From a virus (Duplodnaviria; Caudoviricetes), in IMG/VR virus record IMGVR_UViG_3300020044_001178, positions 1 through 30,719 of that record: a DNA stretch of 30,719 bases; one strand, written 5' to 3'. Both the position numbers and the translations under genes were made by a program. Numbering within the stretch: position 1 is the stretch's first letter; every line of letters begins with the position of its first letter. Positions 7,042-28,815 of the stretch are shown here, piece by piece. The notes under the pieces are model-generated. The model worked only from the letters and a program-made list of their open reading frames with translations. It was not told the DNA's origin and did no database searches.

Positions 7042-8730
7042 TTATTGGTATCTAAACGCTGGGTTCTGCTTTTCTTTAGGTTTAAGCGCCTCGTCGAACG
7101 GCTTAGGCCCTTCGCTGTCCCCCGATTTATATCTAGCTGCAAGATATTCAGTAGCAGCCTCTTTAAGCGGTCCGCCCTTGAGGAACATCTGGAATACCAT
7201 CTGGTCAACGTCAATACCTTGATTTTTAGCAGCTTCGATACGCATGTTAAGCTCGTCACGACGTAGTTTAAGCTCTTCTTGTTTTACCTTAACCTCTGCC
7301 TTGCGGTTCTCAATACCCTCGTTAAGTGCAGCCACCCTGCCGGTGAGGTCAACACCCATCTGCATGACTTCCATCTTCTCTTTACGGCTGAGGTTTGCCA
7401 GCTGGGTACGTTCACGCTGCATCTCACGGATGCGCGCTTTATCCGCTGCTAAGCTTTCTGCAATATCTCCAGCACCAGCACCGAGAGTTTCAGCCAGACC
7501 ACCTAGTAAGGTGGGGCTCTTTGAGGCCCCAAGGCGCTTTGCAAGCTTACCTAGGCCTTCGAAAAACGCGTCTTTTTGCCCCCGTGCTTGGCTCTCAGGA
7601 GAGAGTTGTTCTTTTAGGCTTTCACGGTGTTCAATCTGCTCAGCAGACTCCTCTGGCATCATGCCAGTGAGCATGTCGATATTACCTTGTAGGTTCGTAG
7701 GTAGGCCATAGAGAGTATTAGACTTCTGCGCAGAACCTGCTAGTTCTTTGCTATTTTTAAACCTACCCGAAGCAACTTGCGGTGCAATGTTCTTAAAGAA
7801 CTCCATCGGGTCCATACGGTTACCTTCTGCGTCACGGGCACCAAAGTGCAGGTGATGACCTCCGTTTTTACCGCGTACACGACCGGTATTACCCGATAGA
7901 CCTATAACTTCACCCGGACCTACTTCCTGTCCCGGTGCGACGGCAATTTCCGATAGGTGGGAATACGACGAGCGCGTACCATCAGGGTGTTCTACAATCA
8001 CAAAATTACCGTTAATATTATCAGTGGAGGCAGTAACCACTTTACCCGGCGCTGGACTTCCAATCGGGGTTTTATTACCCACCCCAAAATCCGTTCCTTT
8101 ATGCGTACTCGCGCCGCGTTTTACTCCATATGGAGAAGTAACCGCAGACCGCATCCAATCCGTGGGACTAGCAGTGCCACCACCGGAAAACGCAACCATA
8201 CCACCACCTGCGTAGCCGTCGCCGTCGTCAAAGCCACCATTACGGGGCTCATCAAACATTGTGTCGGGTATAGGTAGCTCAGAAAGGCCACCACCTGCGG
8301 CGTAAGGAGGCACCATGCCGCCTTCAGCCATCATCGGCATTTCACCTTGTGGCGGAGCCATTTCCTGTGGTGGCGGAGCCATTTCTTGTGGGGGCGGAGC
8401 CATTTCTTGTGGTGGAGGCGCACCTTGTGGCGGAGGCGCACCCATAGGCGGCATAGCACTCTGCATTTGTGCAGCTTCTGGTGTAGCACCAAGACCGGCG
8501 GGTGGTTGTTGTGGCGCTGGAGGAGCAAAGACTTGCTGTGCTACCGTCTGTTGGGGAGCGCCTTCTTGCATCGCAGCGGAGCGCATACGGTCAATAAACA
8601 TACCCGCCAAGGTGCCAGCGGTAGGGTCAAGAATACCCATCTGCATAGCTTCAGCAATTTTCTGCTTGTTGCCTGCATAGTCCTTAGCAATTTGCTCCGG
8701 GGACTGTATGGTGAACGGTTTAGTTTCCAC
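7042..8730 (-). CDS. probable ejection protein with M23-family peptidoglycan endopeptidase domain
   Basis: HKGTDF (HxxxD), YSHLS, IGLSGNTG and HLHF motifs; Pro/Gln-rich N-terminal ~180 aa; coiled-coil C-terminus; lies just upstream of the giant gene. Confidence 0.88.
   Translation of the reverse strand: METKPFTIQSPEQIAKDYAGNKQKIAEAMQMGILDPTAGTLAGMFIDRMRSAAMQEGAPQQTVAQQVFAPPAPQQPPAGLGATPEAAQMQSAMPPMGAPPPQGAPPPQEMAPPPQEMAPPPQEMAPPQGEMPMMAEGGMVPPYAAGGGLSELPIPDTMFDEPRNGGFDDGDGYAGGGMVAFSGGGTASPTDWMRSAVTSPYGVKRGASTHKGTDFGVGNKTPIGSPAPGKVVTASTDNINGNFVIVEHPDGTRSSYSHLSEIAVAPGQEVGPGEVIGLSGNTGRVRGKNGGHHLHFGARDAEGNRMDPMEFFKNIAPQVASGRFKNSKELAGSAQKSNTLYGLPTNLQGNIDMLTGMMPEESAEQIEHRESLKEQLSPESQARGQKDAFFEGLGKLAKRLGASKSPTLLGGLAETLGAGAGDIAESLAADKARIREMQRERTQLANLSRKEKMEVMQMGVDLTGRVAALNEGIENRKAEVKVKQEELKLRRDELNMRIEAAKNQGIDVDQMVFQMFLKGGPLKEAATEYLAARYKSGDSEGPKPFDEALKPKEKQNPAFRYQ
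8348..8442. repeat. 21-nt coding repeats (PPPQEMA x3, flanked by PPPQG variants)
   Basis: TGTGG(C/T/G)GGCGGAGCCATTTC-like unit repeated; the protein reads APPPQEMAPPPQEMAPPPQEMAPPQG. Confidence 0.85.
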
Positions 8731-8731
8731 G

Positions 8732-10741
8732 TTAAATTACCCCTGCCCGGTTAGCTGTGTTGTATATACTAGCTGCGCCCAACCCGCCAGCAAGCAGCTG
8801 TGAGCCTATCGAAGGAGAAGGAGCACTTTGTGTTTGTGTGCTGGTCATAGCCTGCGGTACACCGCTCATAATATTCATGTACTGCTGAAGCTGCGTATAC
8901 GGGTTATTGGCCTCCCGCATGAAGTCTGCATAGTCAAGGTCGATCATCTGCTGGTTAAGCGCCTGCTGTTGCGCAGCGGTGCTTTGCTGCATACCAAGTC
9001 GTGCTAGGTCCGCCTGCTGCTGTGCCGAACCAATGTTGCTAAGTGTCTGACCCATCTGGCCAGCCTGTGCTAGACCTGCAAGTCCTTGCTGCGAACCAAA
9101 CTGACGCGACTGCTCGGCCATACGCTGCATATCAAGGTTGGCCTGCTGGTTAGACTGAAGCGCAGCAAGACCCGTTTGAGCACCCAGCTGCTGTGTCTGT
9201 AACGCAGAGCTAAGGTTCTGTTGGCCGACCGTAAGTCCGGTCTGTTGGTTAGCCAGTGCAGCGCGCAGAGCGTTTTCGGCGTTCATACCTTGTGTCTGTA
9301 ACTGCGCTGCGAGGTTCTGGACGTTAGCCTTCGAAGCAGAGTCAAGATTAGCAAGTGCCGTCTGCATACCCGCCTGAGTACTAAGCTGTTGAGCCTGCAT
9401 CATAGCCTGCTGGTTTGACTGTGCACGAGTGACGTCCACACCTTGGTTGGCTAGTGAAGCGCGCAGAGCGTTTTCGGCGTTCATACCCTGAGCTTGTAAT
9501 TGCGCAGCTTGGTTGTTGACCCGCGCCTGTTGCTCGTTGGTTAGGTTAGCAAGTGCCATCTGCGTACCCGTCTGAGTACCCAATTGTTGCACACCTAGTT
9601 TAGCCGCGAGGTTCTGTTGGCCTATGGTGAGTCCCGCCTGCTGGTTGGCCAGTGCCGCCCTCATAGCATTGTCGGCGTTCATACCCTGAGCTTGGAACTG
9701 CTGCGCTTGGTTGTTGACCCGCGCCTGCTGCTCGTTGGATAAGTTAGCAAGTGCAGCCTGCATACCAGTGCTAACGCCAAGCTGCTGCTGCCCTAGTGCG
9801 GCCTGTAGGTTTTCCCTATCGGTAGTCATACCCGCTGCGCGGTCACGCTCAAACTGAGCTTGCGCATTTTCATACGCCGCTTGCGAACCACGTGCTTGGA
9901 TATCACCTAGTTGCGTACCCAGATTGCGCTCACGCTCAAGACCAGCAAGTAGCTGACGGCTACCACCATAAGTACCCTGACGCGCAGCGCCTAGGTCTTG
10001 AACAATCTGGCCCTTTTGTGCGTCACGAATAGCTTCGCGTTTCTGTATGTCCGTAACATTTTGCTGGAAGGGGGACATATACCGCTCGGCTTGCACACCA
10101 CCAAACTGCTCAGGACCTTCCATGCGGAACTGCTCAAGTGGGTCTTGACCAAAAGAAGTTTGTGCACCCTGCATATCGGATGCCTTAACTTTTCCAGCAC
10201 TAACATTACCTGCTTTACCCATCTGGAAGTTTTGGAGTTTTGGGTTGTACCCACTCTTTGCAGCTTGCATTGAGGACGCGCCTACGCCTAGTGCACCCAC
10301 ATCACGGGTATTACCCATCATGTAAGCTTGTACCTGCGGATTGAAGCCGGTCTGAGCAGTACCCATCTGGGGCGTGCCGTACTGCTGAGCTTGTACATTC
10401 TGCGGCGCGGTCATGCTATATTGTTGCAGGTTGGGCATACCAATCTGCTGCGAGCTAAACTGACCGGGAGTATACTGGCCCGCCTGAAGAGAACCAAGGC
10501 CCGCAGCGGTAGCTAGTGTTGTAGCGTCGCCAAACTGACCCGGCGTCTGCATTCCAGCGACTTGGTTCTGTAGGTTCTGCTGCTGCTGGGTAAACCCAGC
10601 AAGACGGTCTCGGTCGTAGATAGGAGTCGGAGCAGTGAGCAGAGAACTGGCCCGCTGCATCGCCATGTTATAGTAGGGCTGTTGAGACGGACCAATGTTC
10701 GATGTGGTCTGAACAACGTTCTGTGTGGTAGTTTTAGCCAT
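8732..10741 (-). CDS. Gln/Ala-rich probable ejection (DNA transfer) protein with internal repeats
   Basis: 669 aa; GTYGGSRQ motif; three imperfect ALANL..QQA..N..AQ.QAQGMNA(D/E)NA.RA.LANQ repeats; Gly-rich hydrophobic C-terminus; TAATG coupling to the upstream gene. Confidence 0.75.
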   Translation of the reverse strand: MAKTTTQNVVQTTSNIGPSQQPYYNMAMQRASSLLTAPTPIYDRDRLAGFTQQQQNLQNQVAGMQTPGQFGDATTLATAAGLGSLQAGQYTPGQFSSQQIGMPNLQQYSMTAPQNVQAQQYGTPQMGTAQTGFNPQVQAYMMGNTRDVGALGVGASSMQAAKSGYNPKLQNFQMGKAGNVSAGKVKASDMQGAQTSFGQDPLEQFRMEGPEQFGGVQAERYMSPFQQNVTDIQKREAIRDAQKGQIVQDLGAARQGTYGGSRQLLAGLERERNLGTQLGDIQARGSQAAYENAQAQFERDRAAGMTTDRENLQAALGQQQLGVSTGMQAALANLSNEQQARVNNQAQQFQAQGMNADNAMRAALANQQAGLTIGQQNLAAKLGVQQLGTQTGTQMALANLTNEQQARVNNQAAQLQAQGMNAENALRASLANQGVDVTRAQSNQQAMMQAQQLSTQAGMQTALANLDSASKANVQNLAAQLQTQGMNAENALRAALANQQTGLTVGQQNLSSALQTQQLGAQTGLAALQSNQQANLDMQRMAEQSRQFGSQQGLAGLAQAGQMGQTLSNIGSAQQQADLARLGMQQSTAAQQQALNQQMIDLDYADFMREANNPYTQLQQYMNIMSGVPQAMTSTQTQSAPSPSIGSQLLAGGLGAASIYNTANRAGVI

Positions 10742-12234
10742 TATGCAAGCCCCCTAAGGATATTCCGTTGCTGCCCTCGTTTAGTTGCCTTGTGGGCTTC
10801 GTTCATCATAGCATATAGTTTGTTAGCGCCGCGCTTAGGGTCCCCTTTACCGATACGACGCACAGCTTCTGGTGGCATATATACTTCACCCGCAGCAACA
10901 CGAGCAGGCTGATTATTGCCTATACGGGCAGGGATACTATCACTTACACCGTCACCGGGACCATTAATTGGGACGCCGCCCAGTGCTTTAAACCGTTCCT
11001 GACCTGCCTGATTTAAACCATTACCAGCTTCGGCTGTTGAACGGGCATCTACTATAAACCCACCGTTAGCAATTTGTAGTTCTCCACCTGCGGAGTAACC
11101 CATGCCTTCTTCCTCTTCGGGGGCGACCATAGCCTCCTCAGGGTTAACCATACCTTCATTAGGGTCAACACCGCCCATATAGGTAACGGGTTGGAAGTTA
11201 TACATGTTCTGGCCCTTCTTAGCATTAGGGTTCAGCACTGGCTGCATTATCTGCGTACCGCGCACTGTGTGGGAACCCGGCTGTACGACCTGACCCATTG
11301 TGTTATAGATTTCAGGCATATCTACATCAAAATACTTTTGCTGGCCACCGTCGCCCGCAAGTATGTCTTCAGTCGTACCTGAATATATTTGCTTACGAGG
11401 CTGCGCATAGTACGGACCTTGGAAGGAGTTATCAACTTGACCAGCCGGTCCTGCTACACTGCCACCCGAAGGAGCCATTGCGCCGCTAACACCCTGCATA
11501 AGACCAGAAGCAGCCAGCATAGGTGCGGCTTTACCAATGATACCGCCCGGAAGTCCGGCACCAGCAGCTTGACCAAACCGTGACATTATACCGCCTGTGA
11601 ACTGAGGTGCAGCCGCCGAAGCATTAGCAGCACCGTATTTAGTGGCATTAGCCGCAACTTCACGCGCCATGTCAGCAGATGATCCAAAACCACTAACGGC
11701 ACCACCAGCAACATTAGTAGGAATAGTACCTAGGCCCATATTAGCGCCGAAGATACCGGAATTGCCACTCAGTGTCCCGAACCCAGTCTTCGAGATGGCA
11801 CCACCAAGACCAGCAGCGCCAGCAAGTGAAGCGCCGCCATATGCGCCGAGACCAGCCATTAGACCTTTCTTAAGGCTACCTGTTTTAAGTACAGAGCCAG
11901 CAGCGACAAGACCCGCAGCAAGCGGGGCACCGACGCCAGTAGCCGCTAGGAGTCCACCGATAAGCGTAGGAGCTAGTTTCTTAAGTATCTTGCCTAAGAA
12001 ACCAGCTTCGGGAAGACCTGTTTCTGGGTTAATGGTAAGTGAGCCGCCATGTGCCATGGCCAGACCCTGAAGACTGTTAATCTCACCGGGAGTCATGTGC
12101 ACGAGCATCGTATCTTCGCCGCGACCTTGCGCCTGAACTTGCTGGGCCATAGGGGCCATAGGGGCACTAAGAGCGGCTAAACCGCCCTCTGCCATCCCGT
12201 ACGGCTGCTCCATCTGTTGAAAGTCCATTGTCAT
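10741..12234 (-). CDS. probable ejection/pilot protein
   Basis: GRGEDTMLVHMTPGE...TINPETGLPEA motif followed by a Gly/Ala-rich hydrophobic segment; C-terminal GPGDGVSDSIPA...GEVYMP module of the type also seen in tape-measure proteins. Confidence 0.72.
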   Translation of the reverse strand: MTMDFQQMEQPYGMAEGGLAALSAPMAPMAQQVQAQGRGEDTMLVHMTPGEINSLQGLAMAHGGSLTINPETGLPEAGFLGKILKKLAPTLIGGLLAATGVGAPLAAGLVAAGSVLKTGSLKKGLMAGLGAYGGASLAGAAGLGGAISKTGFGTLSGNSGIFGANMGLGTIPTNVAGGAVSGFGSSADMAREVAANATKYGAANASAAAPQFTGGIMSRFGQAAGAGLPGGIIGKAAPMLAASGLMQGVSGAMAPSGGSVAGPAGQVDNSFQGPYYAQPRKQIYSGTTEDILAGDGGQQKYFDVDMPEIYNTMGQVVQPGSHTVRGTQIMQPVLNPNAKKGQNMYNFQPVTYMGGVDPNEGMVNPEEAMVAPEEEEGMGYSAGGELQIANGGFIVDARSTAEAGNGLNQAGQERFKALGGVPINGPGDGVSDSIPARIGNNQPARVAAGEVYMPPEAVRRIGKGDPKRGANKLYAMMNEAHKATKRGQQRNILRGLA

Positions 12235-12255
12235 CTACCCTACCTTATCACTACG

Positions 12256-12284: not shown

Positions 12285-12295
12285 GCCCTTACACG

Positions 12296-13005: not shown

Positions 13006-14925
13006 TTACCTCTTACCATCCGGACGTGCGTCAACACGCGGAGTTCCAAGCTGCCACTGCACACCAAGTGCATCTGAGGAAATCTTGAAGGCCATGGCGC
13101 GGGCACGGGCACGGATGAACACCTGCGGAGTGAACTGGGTTATAGAGGTAGATATAACCCGCTGCGAGTCTGCAGCGTCATTGGAGACCGGCCCACCGGG
13201 GAAGCTACGGGGGAAGAGCGTCATCGTCGCTTCTGGAGCACTAGCAGATGAAGTGGCAAAGTTAACATCGGGGATGACGCGCCGCGTCAACATAAACTGG
13301 TCACCCTCACCGAGTTCGAAATCGGACGAGAGAATGTAGCTATCCATCGCTACTCCGTCGTCATCTGTGCCGACTTCGTGCGAATAGAGGTAGCCAATAC
13401 TGGTGCTCAGGTCGGTGTTTGCCGCTTGTGGCGCAGGGCGTAGGGCCGTGTCCAGCCATGCCGTACGGTCAATGCTACCATAATACCAGATGCGCTCAAG
13501 GTGGTTATAGACAACATAAGCATCGTTATAGTCGCTCTGCGCGGTTGGGTAGAACCACCATATCTCGTTCCACTGCTCGTTGGTGCCGCAGACCACTTGA
13601 CCTGCTTGGTCTACGTTGAAGTTCGTAAAGACATGGTTACGTAGGGTGCAGGGGAGTGTCTCGACGCGACCAGTGTATGTGTAGAACTTGTCTTGGCCCA
13701 TCCAGTAAGTGACGCTGGCCGCTGTAGCCACGGCGCGGGGGCTCATGATCGAGATGTTATCCGCGTACTCCTGAAGCGCAAAGACGTCAGTCGTGCCAAG
13801 AAACTGGAGTGTGTATAGGTGTGTATCGGTCCAGACCAAGATTTCCTGCCGAGTAGGCAGTGCCCGTACGATACGCGAGCCGCGTGAAACCCGAAGGTCA
13901 CCTGCGGTATTTGTTTGGGTCGGTGTCCAATCGCTTGGAGTATCTTGGTCTGCCCACCGGATAAGCATAGGGTCAAAGTCAGCCGTGCTTGTCGAACCGA
14001 AAGGAACCGCACCAAAGGCAATAAGGTGCCTGTCTTGCTGAGAGACCATAAGCTGCATGATCTGCGCTGGGACTGCGTCGGGGTCGTGCCCGTTTGCAGT
14101 GGCGTATGCCTTCAGTGAAATCGCTCGGATAGCCAAGGGCACCCCGGGGTCAGCATTGGTACCGCGTTCCCACCAGTAGCCCGCCCCGTTGCGCACGTTT
14201 GCAACAAGGTCATTATCAAAATTGTCGAACCACCAGTCGCGCTGGGGTAAGAATATCGGCGCACCGGTAGTACCAAGACCCCAAGCGTCGCGTCCCCACG
14301 CACCAACACCCCAGCCATAACCCTCTGTAGCAACTGCATTTCCGGACTGAAGTAGGAAGTCGATATCTATTGCCGTGCCGCCGCCGCCTGTCACCGTCGA
14401 GGTTGCGCTAGTAGCAACAGTAAAAGTAAACGATGTAGAAGACGTTTTCGTAACTTTGTGCTCAGCATTAATCTGTGCGTCTGGAACCCCACCCACGTCA
14501 CCGGCAACACCAGAGATAATTACATAGTCTCCGGTTTCCGCCCCGTGGACTACACTAAGCGTCACGGTTATAGTATTAGAGCCGTTCGTGGTAAATATGC
14601 AGTTGTCGGTGCTTGGAGAAGATATGGTGGGGGTGGTAGACCGCAAGGGGGTGATGTCGTAGTAGTTTCCCCCCGCCTCGATATAGAGCTTCTCGTTGGT
14701 GCCTACCGCCAGAAAGTTGTCTGAGTAGGTTGTAATCCAATTCCACATCTGGCGACATACGCCGACGAACGGGATATTCGAACTCTTAACCCAGCCCCCT
14801 AGCTTCTCAGGATAACCAGAACGGAACCTAATTTTGTCGCACTCGTTCCACCCACCCGTGTTGGTGTAGTTAGTCTGGTCTCGGTTCACACCGGGCCGGA
14901 AAGTGAGTTTTATGAGCTGGCTCAC
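13006..14925 (-). CDS. tail nozzle / DNA stabilisation protein (P22 gp10 / T7 gp12-like position and size)
   Basis: ~640 aa with Trp/Gly-rich propeller-like repeats (IRWADQ, EILVWTD, YWMG, EIWWFYP). Start placed at GTG 14923-14925 because it overlaps the stop of an upstream mini-ORF; the ORF track start is 14940. Confidence 0.75.
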   Translation of the reverse strand: MSQLIKLTFRPGVNRDQTNYTNTGGWNECDKIRFRSGYPEKLGGWVKSSNIPFVGVCRQMWNWITTYSDNFLAVGTNEKLYIEAGGNYYDITPLRSTTPTISSPSTDNCIFTTNGSNTITVTLSVVHGAETGDYVIISGVAGDVGGVPDAQINAEHKVTKTSSTSFTFTVATSATSTVTGGGGTAIDIDFLLQSGNAVATEGYGWGVGAWGRDAWGLGTTGAPIFLPQRDWWFDNFDNDLVANVRNGAGYWWERGTNADPGVPLAIRAISLKAYATANGHDPDAVPAQIMQLMVSQQDRHLIAFGAVPFGSTSTADFDPMLIRWADQDTPSDWTPTQTNTAGDLRVSRGSRIVRALPTRQEILVWTDTHLYTLQFLGTTDVFALQEYADNISIMSPRAVATAASVTYWMGQDKFYTYTGRVETLPCTLRNHVFTNFNVDQAGQVVCGTNEQWNEIWWFYPTAQSDYNDAYVVYNHLERIWYYGSIDRTAWLDTALRPAPQAANTDLSTSIGYLYSHEVGTDDDGVAMDSYILSSDFELGEGDQFMLTRRVIPDVNFATSSASAPEATMTLFPRSFPGGPVSNDAADSQRVISTSITQFTPQVFIRARARAMAFKISSDALGVQWQLGTPRVDARPDGKR

Positions 14926-14966
14926 GGTTTCGTTGACCACACTATGTTGAAGGGATCGGACTGCAT
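14922..14966 (-). CDS. 14-aa mini-ORF (MQSDPFNIVWSTKP)
   Basis: TAAGGA SD 6 nt before ATG; its TGA overlaps the GTG of the nozzle gene (GTGA). Confidence 0.4.
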   Translation of the reverse strand: MQSDPFNIVWSTKP

Positions 14967-17002: not shown

Positions 17003-20000
17003 TTACGTCGGTATCTGAGTCCAGATTACTGTATTTCCGTCATTGATCTGCACCCAGTTCCCAGACTGGGCATCGTTGACTGGTACCCAGTTGGGTGTTT
17101 GATTATCATTCACTTGGGCCCAATTCCCCGTCTGGCTGTCAGCAACTGGTACCCAGTTAGGTGTTTGGTTATCATTAATAACACCCCATACTAACGGAGT
17201 TGTGACTACTGCAACGGCTTGTACACCAACGACAAAGACTTTACAACCAGCTACTACGCTAGTGGTTCCTATCTGGCCGGTAGCCGAAACACCTGTGAGG
17301 TAGTAGGCTGATTGAGTAGTCACCGTGCCTACAGCGCCTTGTGCCCCTACACCCGTTGGCGTGACGTTAGCAGCACTTTTCTCTCGGGTGTCTCCAATCG
17401 CACCGGAGGCCGCAACCCCCGTAAGGGAGACCTGACCCTTAGACTCGACTACTACTGTGCCTACATCATTAGCCGCAGACAACCCGGTGATGGATACCTG
17501 CTTGGGTATAGATATTACAACAGTGCCAACGGAGCCGGTAGCCGAAACGCCTGTGACTGGGAACTTACCGCTAAGGGAGAAACTAGGAGTACCGACTGCA
17601 CCAGAGGCTTGCACGCCTATTGGACGCACGTTCGCCAGCCCGGTTGCGTTAGCCGTGCCGACTGCACCGGAGGCTTCTACACCTGTGACCGAGACCTGCT
17701 TAGGCAAAGAAACCGCAGCGGTGCCAACTGAACCTGTTGCTTCGATACCAGTAAGCGTAGTTTGTGCCGCACCAGAGGTGAGGACTGTGCCAACTGCACC
17801 CGTGGCTTCAATACCTGTAACTTCTATGAAGACAACTGACCTAGCTACAACAGTACCAACGGAGCCGGTAGCTTCTACACCAGTAAGCGCGGTTTGTGCC
17901 GCACCGGAGGCAAGGACTGTGCCAACAGCTCCCGTAGCTCCTACGCCAGTAACCGAGAACTGCGTAGGGATAGAGGCAACGACTGTGCCAACTGCACCAA
18001 GGGCTTCTACGCCAGTAACTGAGAACTGCGTAGGTATAGAGGCAACGACTGCGCCAACTGCACCAAGGGCTTCTACACCAGTAAGACTTACCGTTGCGCC
18101 GGTACGAACCGACACAGTGCCGATTTCGCCCTCTACCGAGTCTTCAAAGACGGGAGTTGAAATATCGCCGCTAGCAGAAACACCTACACCGTCGTCGATG
18201 GCTTCGGCAGACACACCAGTGGGTATCACGTTCGCAAGGGCCGTGACGTTTACGGTGCCAACTGCACCAAGGGCTTCTACTCCAGTAAGCGTGGTTTGTG
18301 CCGCACTGGAAGTAAGGACCGTACCGACTGCACCCGTGGCTTCGACGCCAGTAACCGAGAACTGCGTAGGAAGAGAAACGACGACTGTGCCAACTGCACC
18401 CGTGGCTTCTACACCAGTGGGGGGTGCTCGAGCACTAGCTACGACCGTACCTATACCAACTGAACCAATGGCTTCAACGCCCGTTACATTAACATTAACA
18501 TTAACATTACCACCCGGTGACGCTGTGAATATCACGTTGCTGTTATTGCCGCCGTCCGTTGAGTTTACACCGACATAGAAACGGTTTGCTTGGTTCACGC
18601 CAATGTCCGTGACGCTCAGATAGTCAATGCCAGTGGTGACGTTGGTCAGGCTAAATGTGCGGCGACTTCCTACAGTAAAACTGTTTACCGTAACGACATT
18701 ACCTACTGTCCCTGTGATGCTCCATGTGCCAATAGTGCCTAAGTTGCTATCAAAGCGGACAGTGTGGGCTACCGTCTTGGTAGACGCAAGTTCAGTGAAT
18801 GTGTATGTGCCAAGCAGTGCTGTTTCCGACGTTCCAGTTGCCCCACCGATAGTCAATTTATTGAATGACAGACCCCCAGAACCAGCAGCAAAACGCCTTG
18901 CAGTAGTCGAGACATTGGACAGCAGAATGTTAGCGGTGTCTTTGTTGAACGTAAGACCTGCTGTCTGGTTAGTAGACCAGACCGTCCCCGTCCCGCTTAG
19001 TGTCCATAGCCCAGACCCCATTGTGATTGTTCTGGTATTAGTGTTGTTGGAGTCAAAAGTCGTGCAAGTCAGGTTGTAGTTAAATGCGTCAAACGTGCCG
19101 CGAGTGAGAGAAATTGAGCTGGTCGAAGTAAACGCATCCCCAAGCCGAAACGTGCCGCTAGGAGGATCAATCGTAATCGAAAACGTTATTGTCTTACCTG
19201 CACTGGTGAACACCGTGGTGCTGCGACCAGAGAAGATTTGCGTTGCGCCTCCTGATACAGTTACACCAGAGCCAAGGGTGTAAGAGCCGTAACGGGTTTG
19301 GCTCACGTTGTGGTTAATCGTAATGCCTATAGTTCTAGTAGAGCAATCAAGAGTACCGATGTTGTAGGCATTTCCTAATGCAAGCGTTCCTGTTAGCGTG
19401 GTGTCGTTGTTAATTACAGCCGTGTCTTGAGCCAGTGGGAAGTAAATTGTATTTGCGCTTCCGCCAGAGGTGTCCGACCACGAAGTGTTGTTCCAGCTTG
19501 TACTCGTCCCAACGCGATAAACCGTCTTAGCCGCAGGAAATGTAATCCCGCTATTGCCCCCGCAGTCACCACCACGGGTAGGTGAGATAGGCGCAGCAGC
19601 CCCAGCAATCGTAATGTCTTGGAAGTCGCAGTCGGTAGCAGATACAGCCGCACAGGTTAGGGTGCGTGTTGTGCCGACGACGCTGGAACGAACGAAGCCG
19701 CGAGCAATAGAAGACGAACCAGCGCAAGTAAAAGTGCCGTTTACGGTTTGATTGGCGGAGATGGCTAGTTGGGTCAGGCCCGCTGTACTAACGGGAAGCG
19801 TCAGGTCGTTGAAGGTGTTTGTGCCATTAATTGTGCGAGTGCCAATTCCTGTGTTGGTAAAAGAAAGATTGTAAAAAGTTTTGCCACCTCCAGAAAATGT
19901 GGGCGATGCTGTAGTGCAGTTTATTGTTGACGTTCCCGCATTAACAGTCAGGTTTGTTGAGGTTAAAAAATCAACGCCGCCAGCAATAGTTAGCGCGCTA

Positions 20001-20509
20001 GAGCCTAAATTAATGGTTCTAACATTAGTGTTGGTAGAAATAAGCGACCCAGCCGCCACAGCAAAGTTTGCCGTAGTAAACGTCCCCTGCGTAATCGTTA
20101 ATGCTCTGGAAGTGGTGTTTAACGCATCACCAAGCGTAACTGTAATACCGGAACCATTGACTGTTACTGCGCTAAACGTCTTACCCGCAGTTGTCAGCGT
20201 CCCCGTGCCAGTTAACGTCATCGTGCCTGTGTGGGTGTAGGTCATAAGCGCACTGAGCGTGACGCTGCCAGCTACAGTGATTGCCGCCGAACCAGCAATA
20301 GTGCCTGTAAAGCCCGTGCAGTTAATCGACTTTGCGCCAGTGTTACCAGCGGCAATCGTGCAAGTGCCAGTGGATAAGGCGCTAAAAAACACATCGTCAG
20401 CGGTAGTTGGAACGGACGCGCCACCGCCACCGCCAGAGGTAGTTGCCCACTTAGTCCCCGCAGTGCCGTCCCAAGATGCCGTGCCGCCTACCCAATAACG
20501 ATCAGCCAT
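17003..20509 (-). CDS. large Thr/Gly/Val-rich virion fibre protein: beta-solenoid-like N-terminal region plus TGVEATGAVGTV-repeat region
   Basis: 1168 aa; MADRYWVGG start with an internally duplicated unit; about 20 TGVxAxGxVGT repeats; C-terminal W..V.D.QT.NW repeats. Confidence 0.8.
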   Translation of the reverse strand: MADRYWVGGTASWDGTAGTKWATTSGGGGGASVPTTADDVFFSALSTGTCTIAAGNTGAKSINCTGFTGTIAGSAAITVAGSVTLSALMTYTHTGTMTLTGTGTLTTAGKTFSAVTVNGSGITVTLGDALNTTSRALTITQGTFTTANFAVAAGSLISTNTNVRTINLGSSALTIAGGVDFLTSTNLTVNAGTSTINCTTASPTFSGGGKTFYNLSFTNTGIGTRTINGTNTFNDLTLPVSTAGLTQLAISANQTVNGTFTCAGSSSIARGFVRSSVVGTTRTLTCAAVSATDCDFQDITIAGAAAPISPTRGGDCGGNSGITFPAAKTVYRVGTSTSWNNTSWSDTSGGSANTIYFPLAQDTAVINNDTTLTGTLALGNAYNIGTLDCSTRTIGITINHNVSQTRYGSYTLGSGVTVSGGATQIFSGRSTTVFTSAGKTITFSITIDPPSGTFRLGDAFTSTSSISLTRGTFDAFNYNLTCTTFDSNNTNTRTITMGSGLWTLSGTGTVWSTNQTAGLTFNKDTANILLSNVSTTARRFAAGSGGLSFNKLTIGGATGTSETALLGTYTFTELASTKTVAHTVRFDSNLGTIGTWSITGTVGNVVTVNSFTVGSRRTFSLTNVTTGIDYLSVTDIGVNQANRFYVGVNSTDGGNNSNVIFTASPGGNVNVNVNVTGVEAIGSVGIGTVVASARAPPTGVEATGAVGTVVVSLPTQFSVTGVEATGAVGTVLTSSAAQTTLTGVEALGAVGTVNVTALANVIPTGVSAEAIDDGVGVSASGDISTPVFEDSVEGEIGTVSVRTGATVSLTGVEALGAVGAVVASIPTQFSVTGVEALGAVGTVVASIPTQFSVTGVGATGAVGTVLASGAAQTALTGVEATGSVGTVVARSVVFIEVTGIEATGAVGTVLTSGAAQTTLTGIEATGSVGTAAVSLPKQVSVTGVEASGAVGTANATGLANVRPIGVQASGAVGTPSFSLSGKFPVTGVSATGSVGTVVISIPKQVSITGLSAANDVGTVVVESKGQVSLTGVAASGAIGDTREKSAANVTPTGVGAQGAVGTVTTQSAYYLTGVSATGQIGTTSVVAGCKVFVVGVQAVAVVTTPLVWGVINDNQTPNWVPVADSQTGNWAQVNDNQTPNWVPVNDAQSGNWVQINDGNTVIWTQIPT
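17200..18485. repeat. about 66-nt degenerate coding repeats (TGVEATGAVGTV...)
   Basis: Recurrent GTGCCAACTGCACC...GGCTTCTAC units; a near-identical adjacent pair at ~17946-18080. Confidence 0.85.
18486..18509. repeat. (ACATTA)4 microsatellite encoding NVNVNVNV
   Basis: Four exact hexamers at the junction of the two halves of the fibre gene. Confidence 0.9.
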
Positions 20510-23028: not shown

Positions 23029-23029
23029 A

Positions 23030-23224
23030 TTATTTACCCCGCGAAGATTTCTTCTGGTTAGCGATTTTGGCTAAGTTACGACCCATAGCGCCCATCTGTG
23101 CGTTGGTCTTGCCGCCCTTGGCTAGCTTAGTCAGAGGCTTACCCTTGTGCATTGCGCGCTCGTGCTTATGCACGGCTTTCGCTGCAGTAGCCTTATCTTG
23201 CTTCAAATCTTTCTTATCCATCAC
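23030..23224 (-). CDS. small Lys-rich protein with LAKGG motif
   Basis: 64 aa; overlaps the upstream stop; GGAG SD. Confidence 0.78.
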   Translation of the reverse strand: MMDKKDLKQDKATAAKAVHKHERAMHKGKPLTKLAKGGKTNAQMGAMGRNLAKIANQKKSSRGK

Positions 23225-23616: not shown

Positions 23617-23619
23617 GTA

Positions 23620-24330
23620 TCACCGGAAATACTGACGAGGTGCGATGCGCAGTGGCGCTTTCTCACGGTCCTCATCAGCAGCCTGCTGCCAGAGTTCTTC
23701 GTATTCTGCTTTGAGCATTTGGCTGCGGTCAAGCGCGCCGGGAACCTTCAAGGATAGGTGATACGCGAGACCAGCCACCAGACAAGGGAGGAACCTAAAC
23801 GGTATATCTTGCGTAGTAACACCATCACCAGCATCCTGTAAACGGCGCAAGCGCCAGTAGACAAAAGTATAATAGTTGCTCTGGTCTGGCGCTGGCCAGA
23901 CGTTAATGTTCGGGTTTGCAACACCATCTACCGGATAGTCTGCACCTGACTGGCGGTTAATCCACACTTGGATAGGCCGACCCTGCGCGTTTTTATTTGG
24001 GATAGTCGAGTATGTGTCGATGCTGATACGGTTAATAGTGATATCAGTCTGCTGCTGCCCTGTCTGGGTGCGCACAACATGCTCAAGCAAGTCTATAGTG
24101 TCGATAGGTAAATCGTAAACAATCTGCCCCTGCACCAAGGGGATAGAGCCTTGCTCGATGGTCCACAGGTTAATACCACGGTTAGCCCACTCAATAGTGA
24201 GCAGGTTCAAGCTACGGCGCGCAGTGCGCAAGTCATAGCCCGTGCGAAGCTCAGCCCCACAACGCTCAAAAGCCTCTTCGACTAGGTCGTTGAGGTTGAG
24301 ATTAAATGCTGTGGTTCCGCTAGTGGTCAT
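23620..24330 (-). CDS. second adaptor/head-completion-like structural protein
   Basis: VEEAFERCG, EWANRGINLW, GRPIQVW, VWPAPD, LVAGLAY pattern; ATGA overlap with the upstream gene. Confidence 0.7.
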   Translation of the reverse strand: MTTSGTTAFNLNLNDLVEEAFERCGAELRTGYDLRTARRSLNLLTIEWANRGINLWTIEQGSIPLVQGQIVYDLPIDTIDLLEHVVRTQTGQQQTDITINRISIDTYSTIPNKNAQGRPIQVWINRQSGADYPVDGVANPNINVWPAPDQSNYYTFVYWRLRRLQDAGDGVTTQDIPFRFLPCLVAGLAYHLSLKVPGALDRSQMLKAEYEELWQQAADEDREKAPLRIAPRQYFR

Positions 24331-24722
24331 CGGTACTTAGCTGCCTTCTTTGCTATGGCTTTCGGCTGCTTAACGAATTGCTTGCCCGCCTTGATGCCTG
24401 CACGTTTCGCCTTGCTTGTAGCAGAGTATTCCTGAGAACTCAAAGCCTCACGTGCTTTCTTAGGTAAGTAGCGCTCACCCGTAGCTTTTGGCCCTTGAGT
24501 AGACGGCTTGCCTGACTTAGTGCCCCAGTCTTCCTTACCCCATTTGGACAAAGATTTCTGCGCTTCTGTCTTCGGGCCGCTGTAGCTGCCGCCAGACTTC
24601 TTATACCGCTGCGTAGCAAGCTGGGCTTTACGGGCGGACCATTGACCTGCGTTTCCACCCTTGGTGCCAGCTTTTACACTGGCAACAATGCGCTTCCACT
24701 TAGGTTCGTCCGACCGAGCCAT
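24327..24722 (-). CDS. basic protein, DUF5872-like
   Basis: GQWSARKAQL...YKKSGGSY...L.KW.KEDW.TKSGK...GERYLP motif string; family name from recall. Confidence 0.7.
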   Translation of the reverse strand: MARSDEPKWKRIVASVKAGTKGGNAGQWSARKAQLATQRYKKSGGSYSGPKTEAQKSLSKWGKEDWGTKSGKPSTQGPKATGERYLPKKAREALSSQEYSATSKAKRAGIKAGKQFVKQPKAIAKKAAKYR

Positions 24723-25907
24723 TTACCCTCCGAGGTTCATCATCTGCATACGGCGCATGGCTTGCATACGCGGGTCTTCTTGACCTATTTGCTGCTCGTA
24801 AGGGTTAGGCGGAGCCACAGACCCACCCATAGCCATACCCGGTGCAGGAGGCTGACCTGCCTGCTGCATCATTTGTTGGTACTGCTGTAGTTGCTGCTGT
24901 GAAGGCTGACCTTGCTGCGGCACTCCGCCCAACTGTTGACCACCGAGTTGAGCCGCAAGAGGGGCTGCTTGCTGTAACGCACCGAAGCTCGGGTACTCAG
25001 CAGCAATCTGCTGAGAGAGCTGCGCCTTCCTATCTATCTCCTGCTGGGTTAGTGGCTGACCTCCGCTCATATCAAAGCCCGGACCTCCATCATATGGACG
25101 CGGAGAAGTCTGCTGCGGATTAAAACCACCTTGCATAGGCTGACCGCCCTGCTGTGGCACAGTACTCATTAGTTGCCCGTAGCGCTGCATATGCTGCATT
25201 GGGTCGGGTGGGGGCGGAAGCTGACCACCTTGCATAGGCTGACCTTGCTGCTGCGGAGGCTGACTATAAAGAATGCTGGGTGAACCATAACTAGGAGGCT
25301 GACCGCCTGCCCCTGCCTGTTGCTGCCGTGCTAACATCTGCTGCTGACTCATACCACCAAACATCTGGCCTATTCCCATACCGCCACCCTGCTGCATTGG
25401 GTTCGACTGCATAGGCTGACCCGGTCGCATCTGCGAACCACTTGGTTGAAGCTGTTGCTGATACTGTTGCGTATATCGGCGTTTCTGCGGACCATTATAC
25501 TGACCAAGCAACGACTGTATATGCTGCTGCTGCTGCTGATATGCTGGGCCACCCGGTGTCATACCCTGCAAGCTTTGTATCTCGTCGGCCATACTAGGAT
25601 TACCGCCTTGCCCCGGTCGCATTTGCTGACCGCCTTGCTGCATAGGGGTTTGCTGCTGTCCACCAAAACCACCAAAACCACCAAAACCACCAAAACCACC
25701 CATAGGCGGTTGAGTCATAGGTCGTGGAGGCATACCAGTACCACCGCCTGCAATACCCATAGGCGGATTGGGTTGAGTCATAGGCTGCTGGGGTTGACCA
25801 CCAAAACCACCCTGCATAGGCGGCTTGGGTTGAGTCATAGGCATGGTTTGCTTACCGGGCTGCATAATAGGCCGACCGCCAAAACCACCTAGAGGGGGCA
25901 TACTCAT
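24723..25907 (-). CDS. Gln/Gly/Pro/Met-rich low-complexity (prion-like) protein, 394 aa
   Basis: Long open frame; ATG at 25905-25907 lies 1 nt after the upstream stop; GGF and QPMQ repeats; MAMGG near the C-terminus. Confidence 0.8.
   Translation of the reverse strand: MSMPPLGGFGGRPIMQPGKQTMPMTQPKPPMQGGFGGQPQQPMTQPNPPMGIAGGGTGMPPRPMTQPPMGGFGGFGGFGGFGGQQQTPMQQGGQQMRPGQGGNPSMADEIQSLQGMTPGGPAYQQQQQHIQSLLGQYNGPQKRRYTQQYQQQLQPSGSQMRPGQPMQSNPMQQGGGMGIGQMFGGMSQQQMLARQQQAGAGGQPPSYGSPSILYSQPPQQQGQPMQGGQLPPPPDPMQHMQRYGQLMSTVPQQGGQPMQGGFNPQQTSPRPYDGGPGFDMSGGQPLTQQEIDRKAQLSQQIAAEYPSFGALQQAAPLAAQLGGQQLGGVPQQGQPSQQQLQQYQQMMQQAGQPPAPGMAMGGSVAPPNPYEQQIGQEDPRMQAMRRMQMMNLGG
25660..25700. repeat. 9-nt tandem repeat x4.5 encoding (GGF)4
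   Basis: CCACCAAAA x4 plus CCACC. Confidence 0.95.
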
Positions 25908-25908
25908 A

Positions 25909-26196
25909 TTACTTACCTTTCTTGAAGCCCTTGAGCATTTGCGCAAAACGGGCACGTTGACCTAACTTACCGGGGGCCTTGGCGGCTTTGGCAAGTTTTC
26001 CTGCTGGGATTTTCTTACCCGCAGGAGTGCCAAGCTGCGCACGGAGTGCGCCGGGTTTCTTGATCGCTTTGGAGATGTCAAGCTTCCCACCTTTAGCATA
26101 CATAGTCACTTCGTCGGGGTTATCCTTACGACGAATTGTTTTCGCCCCCGGCATTTTAGAAGGGTTTATGGCCCCCATACCCCGACAAGCGCGCAT
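25909..26196 (-). CDS. small basic protein (RGMGA and YAKGG motifs, KKPGALR domain)
   Basis: 95 aa; TAATG coupling. Confidence 0.78.
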   Translation of the reverse strand: MRACRGMGAINPSKMPGAKTIRRKDNPDEVTMYAKGGKLDISKAIKKPGALRAQLGTPAGKKIPAGKLAKAAKAPGKLGQRARFAQMLKGFKKGK

Positions 26197-27467
26197 TAGC
26201 AGTAGCCGCCTTTTTTCATTGTGACGCGCTTAGCTTTGGTTTTGCCCTTGACAGCGATACCATCAATCGAGCCACCCTTAGCATAGCACTTGCCGCCACC
26301 GGCCTTCTTGACCATCGCACGACCTTTAGTGTCTGCCGACTTCTTCATCAGCGCAGCGCCGAACTTAGTTGCTGCAAATGGCTTACCCTTGGCTTTGCCG
26401 CCCTTTTTGTAGCCCGGACCTTCGGAACGGTTTGCGCTTGCAACTACCTTACCTTCTTCAGCGGAAGGCTTGAGTTTCTTGAGTTCATCCAGATGCTTCT
26501 TACTACGGGCACGGTCCGCAGCTGAAGGTTTTGGAGGTGTAGAACCACCCTTAGCATATTTCATAGTCTTTCCTTTTTCTTTAATTTTACCACCCTTGGC
26601 ATACATACCAGATGATGCGGCGTCTTTGTATCTGTCCTTGGCAACCTGGGTTGCACCGGGTGCTTCTGCGGCTTTCTTTAATGTAGCTAGTTTGGCCGCA
26701 CGCGCAGGATCATTAGCAATATCCTTGCCGAAACGAAAAAGAGGAGTACCACCGGGCTTACCGCGTAGTGCAGTACCGCCAGTTGTCGCTACAGTTTTAG
26801 CTGTAGTGGAAGCCGGAGCACCATTACGCCTTGCTTGCATGGCTTTTAAGTCTGCTTGAGCCCTGCTGTCTGTCTTAGTAAACGGCTCTTTCTTAGCTGC
26901 TGCGTCTATTGCCTTGCGTTGCTCAGGGCTAATTTTATAGTTTCTATTCAGCTTAGTAGGTTCCGAAGCTGCCGCAGTTGTACCGGTTCCTGTACCAGTT
27001 TCTGTACGGCTCGCACTTTTGCCTTCGCCAGCAATGTTTGTGGTGAAGCTCTTACCGTTATAGGTAAACGTCTTACCTGCACCTAGGCGCGAGCGCGCAT
27101 CTTTAAACGCTGCGCCGAAGCTCTGTGGCTTAGCCTTTGCCGGTTCTGATGCTTTGGCTGGTTCTGGCGTGCTAACTTTAGCAGGTTCCGCTGCGGCTGC
27201 GGGTTTATCCGCGCCAAACTTACGGGTTCTACTTAAACGCTGTTCTGCGTCATACTCTGCTTTGCGTGTAGCAGTGCGGTCTAGCCCCATACGCTTGGCG
27301 CGGTCATCTTCTGCGTCTGCTTTGCGCTGTGCGGCTTTCGCTTCAACTACATCTGCGTTTTTACCTTTGGCAAGAGCAATTTTGCGGTCTTTATCAATGT
27401 CCTTCATGCGGCGGTCGTAACGACCTTGTGCGCCACCTGCAGAAAACTTTTTCATTGCACGTGCCAT
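26196..27467 (-). CDS. Lys/Ala-rich protein with six phi-[AKS]-x-GG motifs
   Basis: 423 aa; contains an SFGAAFKDAR...KTFTYNGKSFTT module; FSAGG, YAKGG x3, YKKGG, MKKGG. Confidence 0.8.
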   Translation of the reverse strand: MARAMKKFSAGGAQGRYDRRMKDIDKDRKIALAKGKNADVVEAKAAQRKADAEDDRAKRMGLDRTATRKAEYDAEQRLSRTRKFGADKPAAAAEPAKVSTPEPAKASEPAKAKPQSFGAAFKDARSRLGAGKTFTYNGKSFTTNIAGEGKSASRTETGTGTGTTAAASEPTKLNRNYKISPEQRKAIDAAAKKEPFTKTDSRAQADLKAMQARRNGAPASTTAKTVATTGGTALRGKPGGTPLFRFGKDIANDPARAAKLATLKKAAEAPGATQVAKDRYKDAASSGMYAKGGKIKEKGKTMKYAKGGSTPPKPSAADRARSKKHLDELKKLKPSAEEGKVVASANRSEGPGYKKGGKAKGKPFAATKFGAALMKKSADTKGRAMVKKAGGGKCYAKGGSIDGIAVKGKTKAKRVTMKKGGYC

Positions 27468-27469
27468 AA

Positions 27470-27712: not shown

Positions 27713-27713
27713 G

Positions 27714-27968
27714 TCAGCACTTCCAAGCTCTGAGGCTTTTGTTGATACGGCTATTAGGGTCATTGGCGGTCTTCTTCGATGTGAGCTTCTTCTTCATACC
27801 CGACATCCGTGCGCAGAATGACTTCTTACGCGGACCACCTTCAGGCTGCGGTGCCTTGAGACCGGGCTTACCCGGGTTGGCTTTATTGTAGGACGCACGA
27901 CCCTTGGCGTTCAGCCCGCCAGACTTCGCTTTGCCTTCTTTGCGTGTCCAAGCAGGTGTCTTAGCCAT
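27714..27968 (-). CDS. basic protein, DUF6321-like
   Basis: GGLNAKGRASYN...RKKSFCARM.GMK...DPNSRINKSLRAWKC; family name from recall. Confidence 0.72.
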   Translation of the reverse strand: MAKTPAWTRKEGKAKSGGLNAKGRASYNKANPGKPGLKAPQPEGGPRKKSFCARMSGMKKKLTSKKTANDPNSRINKSLRAWKC

Positions 27969-28411
27969 TAGACCATCTTCCCTTTCGTCTTACCCTTGGT
28001 AGCGCAGCCATCGGCACGCTTAGAAGCAGCTGAACCACCAGCAGCCATCTTCTTGACCTTGCCGCCCTTTTTGAAAGGGAATGAAGCCGTAGCGCCTATT
28101 TTGCCGCCATCAAAAGGACTTGCGCCAAAACCTACGCTACCCTTACCTACAGGGATACCCTTAAGCCCATAGACCTTACCGACGGGAGTTGACATTTTAC
28201 CAATGCTTGCTTTGGGGGCACTGGGTTTAGAAGAGCCACCGCCACCGATGCGACCGCGACCGCCACCGCCACCGCCACCGCCACCGCCACCATCTATATG
28301 TGGAAGCTTGTATCCCCCTAGTCTATCTAGACCAGCTATACTCGGTCCGGAACGGCTACCGCTTACAACAATCTCGTCACCAGCAGCATATCGTTTTACC
28401 TTCTTGGCCAT
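27968..28411 (-). CDS. Gly-rich protein with TonB-box-like segment, beta-strand segment and shared 35-aa basic C-terminal tag
   Basis: 147 aa; TAATG overlaps at both ends. Confidence 0.78.
   Translation of the reverse strand: MAKKVKRYAAGDEIVVSGSRSGPSIAGLDRLGGYKLPHIDGGGGGGGGGGGRGRIGGGGSSKPSAPKASIGKMSTPVGKVYGLKGIPVGKGSVGFGASPFDGGKIGATASFPFKKGGKVKKMAAGGSAASKRADGCATKGKTKGKMV
28260..28291. repeat. (CCGCCA)5 microsatellite encoding poly-Gly
   Basis: Five exact hexamers; Gly11 run. Confidence 0.92.
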
Positions 28412-28815
28412 TACACGAACCGCCCTTTGGTTTTACCCTTGGTAGCGCAGCCGTCGGCGCGCTTGGAGGCAGTGGAGCCACCCTTGGCCATCTTCTTGAC
28501 CTTACCGCCCTTTTTGAACGCTTGGATGTTCTGCATTTTCGGCTTTGTACCCATATCAAGGGCACCCATACCTACAGGGCCTTCTTCAGCCACCATGATG
28601 TCTTCTACCATAGGGCGATTACCCATAGGGCGGTTGCCCATATTCGCACGTGCCCGCTCCGCCATTTCCGCCATCATTTTTGGGGGCATCATACGGGAAC
28701 GTGAAAAAATTCCGGACAAACCTTTAGGACGCTCACCAGCTTGTGCTGCCTCAAACTTTCTCATTGCCTTTGCATCAAGCTTGGCGCGTAATTTGGGTGG
28801 TAGTTTTCCAAACAT
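28411..28815 (-). CDS. Met/Lys-rich protein with the shared 35-aa basic C-terminal tag
   Basis: 134 aa; last 35 aa are 31/35 identical to those of 27968..28411; TAATG overlaps. Confidence 0.78.
   Translation of the reverse strand: MFGKLPPKLRAKLDAKAMRKFEAAQAGERPKGLSGIFSRSRMMPPKMMAEMAERARANMGNRPMGNRPMVEDIMVAEEGPVGMGALDMGTKPKMQNIQAFKKGGKVKKMAKGGSTASKRADGCATKGKTKGRFV

Follow-up and report, generated by a model that had tools for sequence, protein, structure and literature searches.

The tape-measure protein pb2 of phage T5, which is ejected during infection, is cut after R1127 into pb2* and pb2C, as mapped by intact-mass spectrometry in PMC10038345, whose text names no protease for it. The cut site reads R↓AEGGMM (arrows stand before the Ala of A-x-G-G) and is one of three [AK]xGG sites among the 1219 residues of pb2. 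In phage lambda, gpH is cut during assembly near its Gly-rich C-terminus to give gpH* and gpHC, at a site and by a mechanism stated as unknown in the text of PMC12617516. Residues 733-782 of gpH contain an F↓ATGG...GEFV...Y↓ATGG module, and further AxGG candidates lie at 707-718. The crAss001 cargo protein gp45 (C1; PDB 7QOG chain M; Pfam PF25725) is virion-internal and is treated by the authors as a single uncut chain; in the published model the domain on the portal begins with residue 425, which is the Ala of N↓AFGG, and motifs at 207 and 261 flank the tail-bound piece 214-245 (text of PMC10172136). We found 8 AxGG sites in gp45 against 1.4 expected, and none in 17 other late proteins of this phage. 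None of the four gp45 peptides named in the text of PMC10172136 spans a motif, and a PHROG of 69 aa that exists as a separate protein matches one segment between motifs (E 7.5e-6). The modelled start at residue 425 could be a mere border between order and disorder, which speaks against taking gp45 as evidence for a cut. Finally, P22 gp7 is trimmed by the host protease OpdA to a mature N-terminus Lys-Gly-Gly-Lys-Gly (text of PMC8402733; BK000583 note), and this processing is largely dispensable, the burst being ~60% when 20 residues are deleted (text of PMC8402733).

The window, by which we mean the whole 30,719 nt stretch of viral DNA analyzed, covers the late region of an HTVC023P-like podophage. 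HTVC023P itself, a cultured relative, is a podovirus; the window contains SU10-type adaptors and a nozzle-like gene, and it gave no match to a tail tube, that is, no sign of a tape-measure carrier of the long-tail kind. The pattern searched, [MYFL]-[AKS]-x-G-G, was derived from this same window and hence was chosen after the fact. It matched 21 times in the 30 window ORFs, 20 times in the eight proteins named by the first-pass annotation and once in the large fibre. Residue shuffles gave 4.0 expected matches and shuffles with fixed Gly positions 5.0 +/- 2.2; the maximum in 2000 of the latter was 14, and 21 was never reached. The features are as follows.

7042..8730, minus strand: putative ejection protein, 562 aa, with four motifs (8317-8331, 8290-8304, 8200-8214, 8176-8190); motif in 36/36 homologues
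7807..8106, minus strand: Peptidase M23 domain, cargo behind the last of these motifs (Pfam PF01551, E 2e-24)
8732..10741, minus strand: Gln-rich putative ejection protein, 669 aa, without motif
10741..12234, minus strand: first putative ejection protein, 497 aa; motif in 63/67 homologues
12181-12195, minus strand: MAEGG of 10741..12234 (residue 14), not conserved (1/60 homologues)
12043-12057, minus strand: MAHGG of 10741..12234, within a conserved N-terminal domain
11083-11097, minus strand: YSAGG of 10741..12234, at the start of the C-terminal domain
10744..11094, minus strand: C-terminal GEFV domain, 1.5 copies of a unit, without Pfam family
19883..19897, minus strand: FSGGG in the large fibre (17003-20509); 1/60 BLAST homologues, 0.48 expected in the protein
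23030..23224, minus strand: small basic protein, 64 aa, LAKGG at 23111-23125; motif in 34/35 homologues
24723..25907, minus strand: Gln/Pro/Gly/Met-rich protein, MAMGG at 24822-24836; doubtful member
25909..26196, minus strand: small basic protein, 95 aa, YAKGG at 26086-26100 ahead of a conserved module (62 aa, net charge +17); motif in 50/64 homologues
26196..27467, minus strand: Lys/Ala-rich protein, 423 aa, with six motifs (27432-27446, 26589-26603, 26544-26558, 26397-26411, 26271-26285, 26205-26219); motif in 30/30 homologues
27968..28411, minus strand: small basic Gly-rich protein, 147 aa, FKKGG at 28061-28075 and MAAGG at 28034-28048, C-terminal module as in 28411..28815; motif in 5/5 homologues
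28411..28815, minus strand: small basic protein, 134 aa, FKKGG at 28504-28518 and MAKGG at 28477-28491; motif in 25/26 homologues
28414-28488, minus strand: conserved 25-aa basic C-terminal module of 28411..28815

The carriers had been described as eight mostly unrelated proteins, a description that needs correcting. Proteins 26196-27467, 27968-28411 and 28411-28815 have a C-terminal basic module in common and are partial paralogues; the motif stands immediately ahead of this module in 48 of its 67 copies. In addition, the MAMGG of 24723-25907 is weak, being absent from the sole BLAST homologue and present in 2/12 compositionally similar genes. The motif is conserved in most carriers, but this MAMGG and the MAEGG of 10741-12234 are not. 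The fibre FSGGG is a chance match outside the system, as had been suspected. The six motifs of 26196-27467 delimit seven segments, every one of which is net positive. The YAAGD variant of 27968-28411 corresponds to residues 8-12, near the N-terminus, and the translation of ORF 24327-24722 has no motif match. Cultured phages had no tblastn match to the basic module. By eye we suspected homology between the basic module of 25909-26196 and residues 370-424 of crAss gp45; an HMM comparison of the two gave no hit, and the idea was rejected.

A fairer test was provided by ten related genomes (G001-G010, analyzed with our own ORF caller), which are related to each other and not independent. In these, the small basic genes of the cluster from capsid to second adaptor contained 54 motifs against 5.6 in shuffles, and the small ejection genes 48 against 10.0. 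Elsewhere the numbers were 11 against 16.8 (tail, fibre and lysis genes), 0 against 6.0 (giant ejection protein, 0 in 10), 0 against 0.8 (the ten capsid proteins), 2 against 4.3 (terminase, portal and scaffold) and 12 against 10.4 (early genes on the opposite strand). Likewise, no motif was present in homologues of the nozzle (0/73) or of the adaptors (0/88 and 0/87), in line with what had been noticed in the window. In these genomes the motif is confined to two gene groups, and its counts in tail, head and early genes are those of chance. Such sites are also present in cultured relatives, namely Y↓AEGG, Y↓ADGG, Y↓AVGG, Y↓AKGG and Y↓ASGG in MinM2/Pag-Yong1/Pra-JY27, and, with Lys in place of Ala, F↓KRGG in HTVC023P gp43 and F↓KEGG in gp82.

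More completely, the consensus reads [YMFL]-A-x-G-G-[KS]-[VATL]. The position two before GG is Ala in 82% and Lys in 12%, an aromatic residue or Met is held ahead of the Ala, and residues past GG are also conserved, position +2 being mostly V/A/T/L. Motifs are often doubled with a spacing of 8-9 residues (47 of the intervals). They head non-homologous modules and also occur alone in disordered stretches. Synonymous codons are free to vary at every motif position, GGA is rare, and a Shine-Dalgarno-like word accompanies 1/172 Met-type motifs against 860/1904 gene starts. Conservation is thus at the protein and not at the DNA level, and internal ribosome-binding sites or internal starts were rejected on the codon variation together with the scarcity of a Shine-Dalgarno-like word. 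Together these results show that the motif is real, enriched and conserved as protein. In a search of the open-access literature we found no description of it in print.

The position of 10741-12234 after the nozzle-like gene, together with synteny, suggests that it is an ejection protein. The whole protein gave no tblastn match among cultured phages, and its N-terminal domain has no detectable homology to GEFV. The GEFV domain starts at S381-A-G-G, and at this start the homologues have Ala in 64/70 and GG in 69-70/70; the motif is found at the head of the GEFV unit in most of them. This unit is also present in annotated tape-measure proteins of several phages (tblastn E 2e-7 to 7e-3, 40 records; the 8zdo TMP, E 0.004). 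Invariant residues of the domain include Ser63, Asp64 and Glu82 in our numbering. The match to the module of the tail protein lambda gpH was weak (hhalign E 0.003, probability 10%), and GEFV profiles gave no hit to T5 pb2C. A model of the 1.5-unit domain has a confident fold with the motif just outside it, residues 5-15 including the motif being disordered; the single-unit model, with a pLDDT of 52, was of too low quality for fold searches. With the 1.5-unit model no PDB fold match was obtained at E<=0.001; a wide search had a best Z of 4.1, with KH-like matches that were weak and are not trusted. All BFVD matches at E<=0.001 were uncharacterised phage proteins. No protease fold matched the GEFV domain, which speaks neither for nor against GEFV being the protease itself. 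7QOG was absent among the matches listed in both fold searches. Neither did GEFV and crAss gp45 match in profile (HMM) comparisons, and PF25725 gave no hit at E<=10 to the window GEFV domain or a single-unit relative (control gp45, E 2e-66). The nearest named ESM cluster to GEFV was crAss001 gp45, at 0.85 and then 0.85 and 0.84, which is below 0.9 and only a lead. A complex prediction of the G001 portal (residues 50-600) with the GEFV domain scored 0.00 and is evidence neither way. Some GG pairs are structural: an internal GG of GEFV is invariant though without motif, and at the MAHGG site of 10741-12234 GG is kept in 64/65 homologues but the full pattern in 57 only.

In 7042-8730 the four motifs directly precede a swappable cell-wall-enzyme cassette. 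According to regex classes, the 36 homologues carry at the M23 position 2 M23, 16 lysozyme-like and 3 M15-like domains, and 15 have none recognised. The motif thus marks the point of enzyme cargo swapping. The M23 domain itself was rejected as the cutting enzyme because it is present in only 2/36 homologues (regex). Homologues of 8732-10741 start with M-A-x-G-G in 5/40 distinct N-termini, versus 1/779 in other families, and with M-[AGS]-x-G-G in 17/40.

The reading that we prefer, at about even chances, is that the motif is a conserved signal at module joints of likely head-packed proteins and serves in maturation, being cleaved between the bulky position and Ala. Gene position, charge and analogy to crAss001 gp45 suggest that the carriers are head-internal. 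A cut before Ala and not after GG is likely because of the R↓AEGG site of T5, the N↓AFGG start of gp45 and the homologues starting with M-A-x-G-G. A protease acting during assembly would read mainly the residues after the cut (A-x-G-G-x-V/I/L), tolerate many before it and split the precursors. This would release very basic peptides of 9-60 aa, which may condense or buffer DNA, and would also free the GEFV domain and a fragment with the cell-wall hydrolase; every product would begin with A-x-G-G. In a gene starting M-A-x-G-G, removal of Met would give an equal end. The cutter may come from the host, be a phage protein not recognised as a protease, or be the precursor itself. The absence of the motif from the giant ejection protein and from window 8732-10741 speaks against the cut model, as do the structural GG pairs and the largely dispensable processing of P22 gp7.

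The best precedent is T5 pb2, rather than T4 or phiKZ. Its A-x-G-G string is in the same register as that of the window, and x↓A-x-G-G at the start of a module is common to T5 (R↓AEGG), lambda (F↓ATGG) and the window GEFV domain, as a domain start at such a site is to gp45 (A425) and GEFV. There are differences: in pb2, a tail protein of a siphophage, a single site is mapped, whereas the window has ~20 sites in 7-8 podophage proteins, and gp45 is one fused protein whereas the window has separate small genes. The residue before Ala also differs, being Y/F/M/L in the window, Arg in T5 and S/F/K/N in gp45, so that one shared enzyme would need a loose P1 specificity. As profiles gave no hit, the link to T5 pb2 and crAss gp45 consists of a motif of 4-5 residues and its context. 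A wider and more tentative proposal, possible in our view, is that all tailed-phage morphologies share one X↓A-x-G-G code for cargo maturation, in which a protease or self-cleavage would make the cut and the new N-terminus would position or thread the pieces for ejection.

T4 gp21 and phiKZ gp175, the model invoked by the first-pass annotation, are prohead proteases with Glu before the cut and the capsid among their substrates. These and SPN3US gp245 resemble the window in having a short site common to many internal or ejected, polyprotein-like proteins. The window motif however has no conserved Glu, and the capsids of window-type phages are without motif (0 in 10), whereas those of T4 and phiKZ are processed by their own prohead protease. 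Prohead-protease Pfam families were absent at E<=0.001 from the 78/83 ORF pieces scanned of complete relative G002 and the 35/93 of complete relative G003, the scan returning only an early-strand DUF2201 and an M15 protein. The co-occurring head protease was thus not found in these pieces, where a divergent enzyme may have been missed, and the T4/phiKZ model is not directly transferable; restriction to gene classes, conservation and cargo swapping do favor a shared signal, and a putative cutting or packaging role is partly supported. The first-pass statement that P22 gp7 is processed ahead of KGGKGG was right. This ejection protein also has a Gly-Gly leader, but its processing is a single N-terminal event by a host protease without internal sites and is one residue out of the A-x-G-G register, leaving gp7 as an analogy only.

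A serious rival, although we hold it to be rather unlikely, is that the motif is never cut and acts as a docking tag. The peptide would bind portal, scaffold, capsid or a GEFV pocket and so load the prohead or order exit, with repeats adding avidity; the 8-9 residue doubling suits this, as cutting there would yield pointless 8-9-mers. Packaging tags are known, for example the N-terminal 30 residues of P1 DarB (text of PMC9024508), the AFGG start of gp45 is ordered on the portal (text of PMC10172136), and the G002/G003 scan found no protease. Such a tag leaves the mapped T5 cut at Ala and the giant ejection protein without motif unexplained. In addition, the motifs of T5 and lambda belong to tail proteins, and tails assemble without portal or capsid.

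Alternatively, the motif may be only a structural joint, a flexible leading edge of mobile modules spread by duplication and recombination and read by no partner. The module shared by three carriers, the GEFV unit headed by the motif in most homologues and the exchange of cargo at the motif agree with this. We consider it unlikely, since motifs precede modules that are not homologous to each other and also occur by themselves where the chain is disordered, Ala at 82% and the preceding aromatic residue or Met exceed the needs of a linker, and the model places the motif disordered outside the GEFV fold.

It is very unlikely that the motif is processed behind Gly-Gly, in the way adenovirus basic core proteins are, by a protease of the adenain/Ulp1 or JAB type. 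GG-fenced basic peptides do resemble adenovirus pVII and mu, and AVP cuts (M/I/L)XGG↓X (text of PMC4246237), but the P4-equivalent here is Ala (82%) or Lys (12%) and not M/I/L, the residues beyond GG are conserved, the T5 site maps four residues earlier, and no protease of these families, clan CE (adenain/Ulp1-type) included, gave a Pfam hit in the scanned G002 pieces and part of G003. Finally, chance arising from a Gly/Lys/Ala-rich composition, or a DNA/RNA element such as an internal ribosome-binding site, is hardly credible: the carriers are of low complexity, the pattern is post hoc and two sites are not conserved, but Gly-fixed shuffles never reached 21, enrichment was about tenfold and fivefold in two gene classes of other genomes and at chance level elsewhere, and codons vary with GGA rare.

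If the wider proposal of one shared code is true, it would explain the long-unexplained cuts of lambda gpH and T5 pb2, and crAss001 gp45 would be divided between head and tail instead of forming a single 420 A chain stretched through the portal. HTVC023P-type phages would, like adenovirus, pack their heads with basic peptides set free by a protease. The predicted sites are exact: F733↓A734 or a nearby AxGG (707, 711, 718 or 779) in lambda gpH, Ala207, 261, 330, 425 and 560 in gp45, and ~18 in the window. A cut before Ala would, if true, account for a cluster of unannotated basic genes, provide a plug-in point for swapping injected enzymes, and constitute a new processing rule for a large group of aquatic phages, one marker gene of which is matched by ~3,500 stored IMG/VR stretches.

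The minus strand of the window, a virus record of 30,719 bases with a completeness of about 50%, holds late-region genes from a phage with a short tail:

Minus strand, late gene content: two SU10-type adaptors, a nozzle-like gene, fibres and lysis genes
Minus strand, further genes: three mid-sized ones after the nozzle and one for a 2185-aa DarB/LPD39-like protein

The capsid protein of G002, a complete relative, shares 62-73% identity with its counterparts in MinM2/Pag-Yong1/Pra-JY27, DSL-LC04 and HTVC023P/027P, and HTVC023P-type phages are described as podoviruses (bioRxiv 2019.12.14.876532). Where the post-nozzle genes lie, their synteny and the order of genes in P22 lead us to infer that they encode ejection proteins, a label that has no database match behind it. 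In eight related genomes (G001, G002, G004-G008 and G010) a gene of 139-147 aa lies between the first two ejection genes, at the position of P22 gp14; it is absent from the window (10741 junction) and from the related genome G009. A beta domain is inserted in the nozzle-like protein (13006-14940, minus strand); it matches E1_FCCH weakly (E 0.004, below the cut-off). OQ594354, OL906435 and PP438419 were deposited with different cyanobacterial hosts, yet all three are 65,014 bp long and score identically in matches; a single phage may underlie them, with some doubt as to its host.

The motif [MYFL]-[AKS]-x-G-G is real. The first-pass annotation had claimed about 20 matches, and the recurrence was borne out: 21 are present across 30 ORFs, against 4.0 expected after residue shuffling or 5.0 +/- 2.2 with Gly fixed. 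Because the pattern was drawn from the window itself, ten related genomes were tested. Using our own simple ORF calls on these genomes, which are related to each other, we counted 54 motifs versus 5.6 expected (about tenfold enriched) in the small genes that lie between the capsid and adaptor genes, and 48 versus 10.0 (fivefold) in the small ejection genes. Numbers at or below chance were seen in genes of the tail, capsid, packaging, giant-ejection and early classes. Conservation of the motif positions held in part: seven carriers keep the motif in 78-100% of homologues, but two of the sites first listed, MAEGG (residue 14 of 10741-12234) and MAMGG (24723-25907), are not conserved. Nozzle and adaptor homologues never have it. 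The consensus over 433 contexts is [Y38 M37 F15 L11]-A82-x-G-G-[K/S]-[V/A/T/L]. Since the motif codons vary synonymously and no ribosome-binding signal is found at the motif, selection acts on the peptide.

In the basic gene cluster the motif divides strongly basic blocks; the predicted pieces are 9-62 aa with a net charge of up to +17, plus one of 281 aa and +26. The carriers, said to be eight mostly unrelated proteins, include three with a common C-terminal module. The Lys-rich protein at 24327-24722 (minus strand) matches two separate PHROGs, 14910 and 17747, and in relatives the first part of this type of protein is joined instead to a 25909-26196-type leader; basic modules therefore shuffle between genes. 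The DUF6321 basic protein at 27714-27968 (minus strand), without the motif, may be further cargo. HTVC023P gp43 (L102:13021-13338), by eye its relative, has F|KRGG (bars denote mapped or proposed cuts) ahead of a basic domain.

Among homologues of 7042-8730 the cargo behind the last motif, classed by regex, alternates between M23, lysozyme-like, M15-like and no recognised enzyme. In 10741-12234 the motif opens a C-terminal domain, GEFV (10744-11094, minus strand; 1.5 units in the window), which has 5,795 relatives among 50%-identity representatives and matched no Pfam family. Its predicted fold is confident (pLDDT 81.5), with residues 5-15, motif included, disordered ahead of it. Relatives of the unit occur within annotated tape-measure proteins and, at a weak level of similarity, in lambda gpH. 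Fold searches with the model matched no protease fold. The unit contains a helix-IGxG-x-G-helix element and gave weak KH-like fold matches (Z about 3, not significant), a faint hint that it might bind nucleic acid. The first ejection protein has a conserved N-terminal domain (12001-12126, minus strand; G-R-G-x-D...L-x-H...N-P-x-T-G-L-P-E) with invariant Asp, His and Glu and no matching Pfam or PHROG family; this domain may be the protease sought, or may serve in binding. The protein at 8732-10741 (minus strand) is Gln-rich with long internal near-repeats, and its full-length homologues range from about 320 to 770 aa, which suggests a variable repeat number.

Several observations bear on a cut before Ala. 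T5 pb2 is cut after R1127, as placed by MS (PMC10038345). The bond lies in R|AEGGMM, and the 1219 residues of the protein contain three [AK]xGG sites, this one included. CrAss001 cargo protein gp45, linked to the GEFV domain by an ESM similarity of 0.85 (a weak lead), has 8 AxGG sites versus 1.4 expected, and 17 other crAss001 late proteins have none. The model of its portal-bound domain begins with residue 425, the Ala in N|AFGG, and the helix that binds the tail falls between two of the motifs (PMC10172136). By our arithmetic each of the two coincidences, T5 and crAss001, would arise by chance with a probability of roughly 0.3-2% when taken singly, but both were spotted after the fact. Our profiles matched neither T5 pb2C nor crAss gp45, so that these links rest on motif and context. 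Of 40 distinct N-termini among homologues of 8732-10741, 5 read M-A-x-G-G and 17 read M-[AGS]-x-G-G, against 1 of 779 in other families. Initiator Met is removed before a small residue, so that M-A-x-G-G would end up with the N-terminus that cleavage ahead of Ala would leave.

In the T4/phiKZ type, too, internal head proteins are matured at a motif; the window motif, however, matches neither the site of that family nor its processing of the capsid. Closest are the unexplained tape-measure cuts: the cut site and catalysis of lambda gpH are stated to be unknown (PMC12617516), and PMC10713586, in which C-terminal tape-measure helices are modelled, reports that they have no conserved motif in common; these helices lie downstream of the motif described here. 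A targeted literature search found no description of the motif.

The reading we favour, at about an even chance, is that the carriers would be cut before Ala during assembly to give pieces starting A-x-G-G; cut, virion location and enzyme are all presumed, and the crAss001 authors read gp45 as uncut (PMC10172136). An uncut docking tag is a less probable account, favoured by the frequent doubling of the motif at 8-9 residues. That the motif is a structural joint seems unlikely. A cut after Gly-Gly is more doubtful still, as the sites depart from the adenain P4 rule (PMC4246237), and chance, given the enrichment over shuffles, is hardly credible. The earlier remark was that no head protease gene is obvious in the window; among 78 of 83 ORF pieces of G002 and 35 of 93 of G003, another relative, no family of head proteases turned up. 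Lysis proteins aside, a peptidase label is carried by a single set among the proteins scanned in these two genomes, a conserved early pair, a MoxR-like AAA protein and DUF2201 (putative metallopeptidase and VWA), in the 50k and 48k regions of G002 and the 34k and 33k regions of G003.
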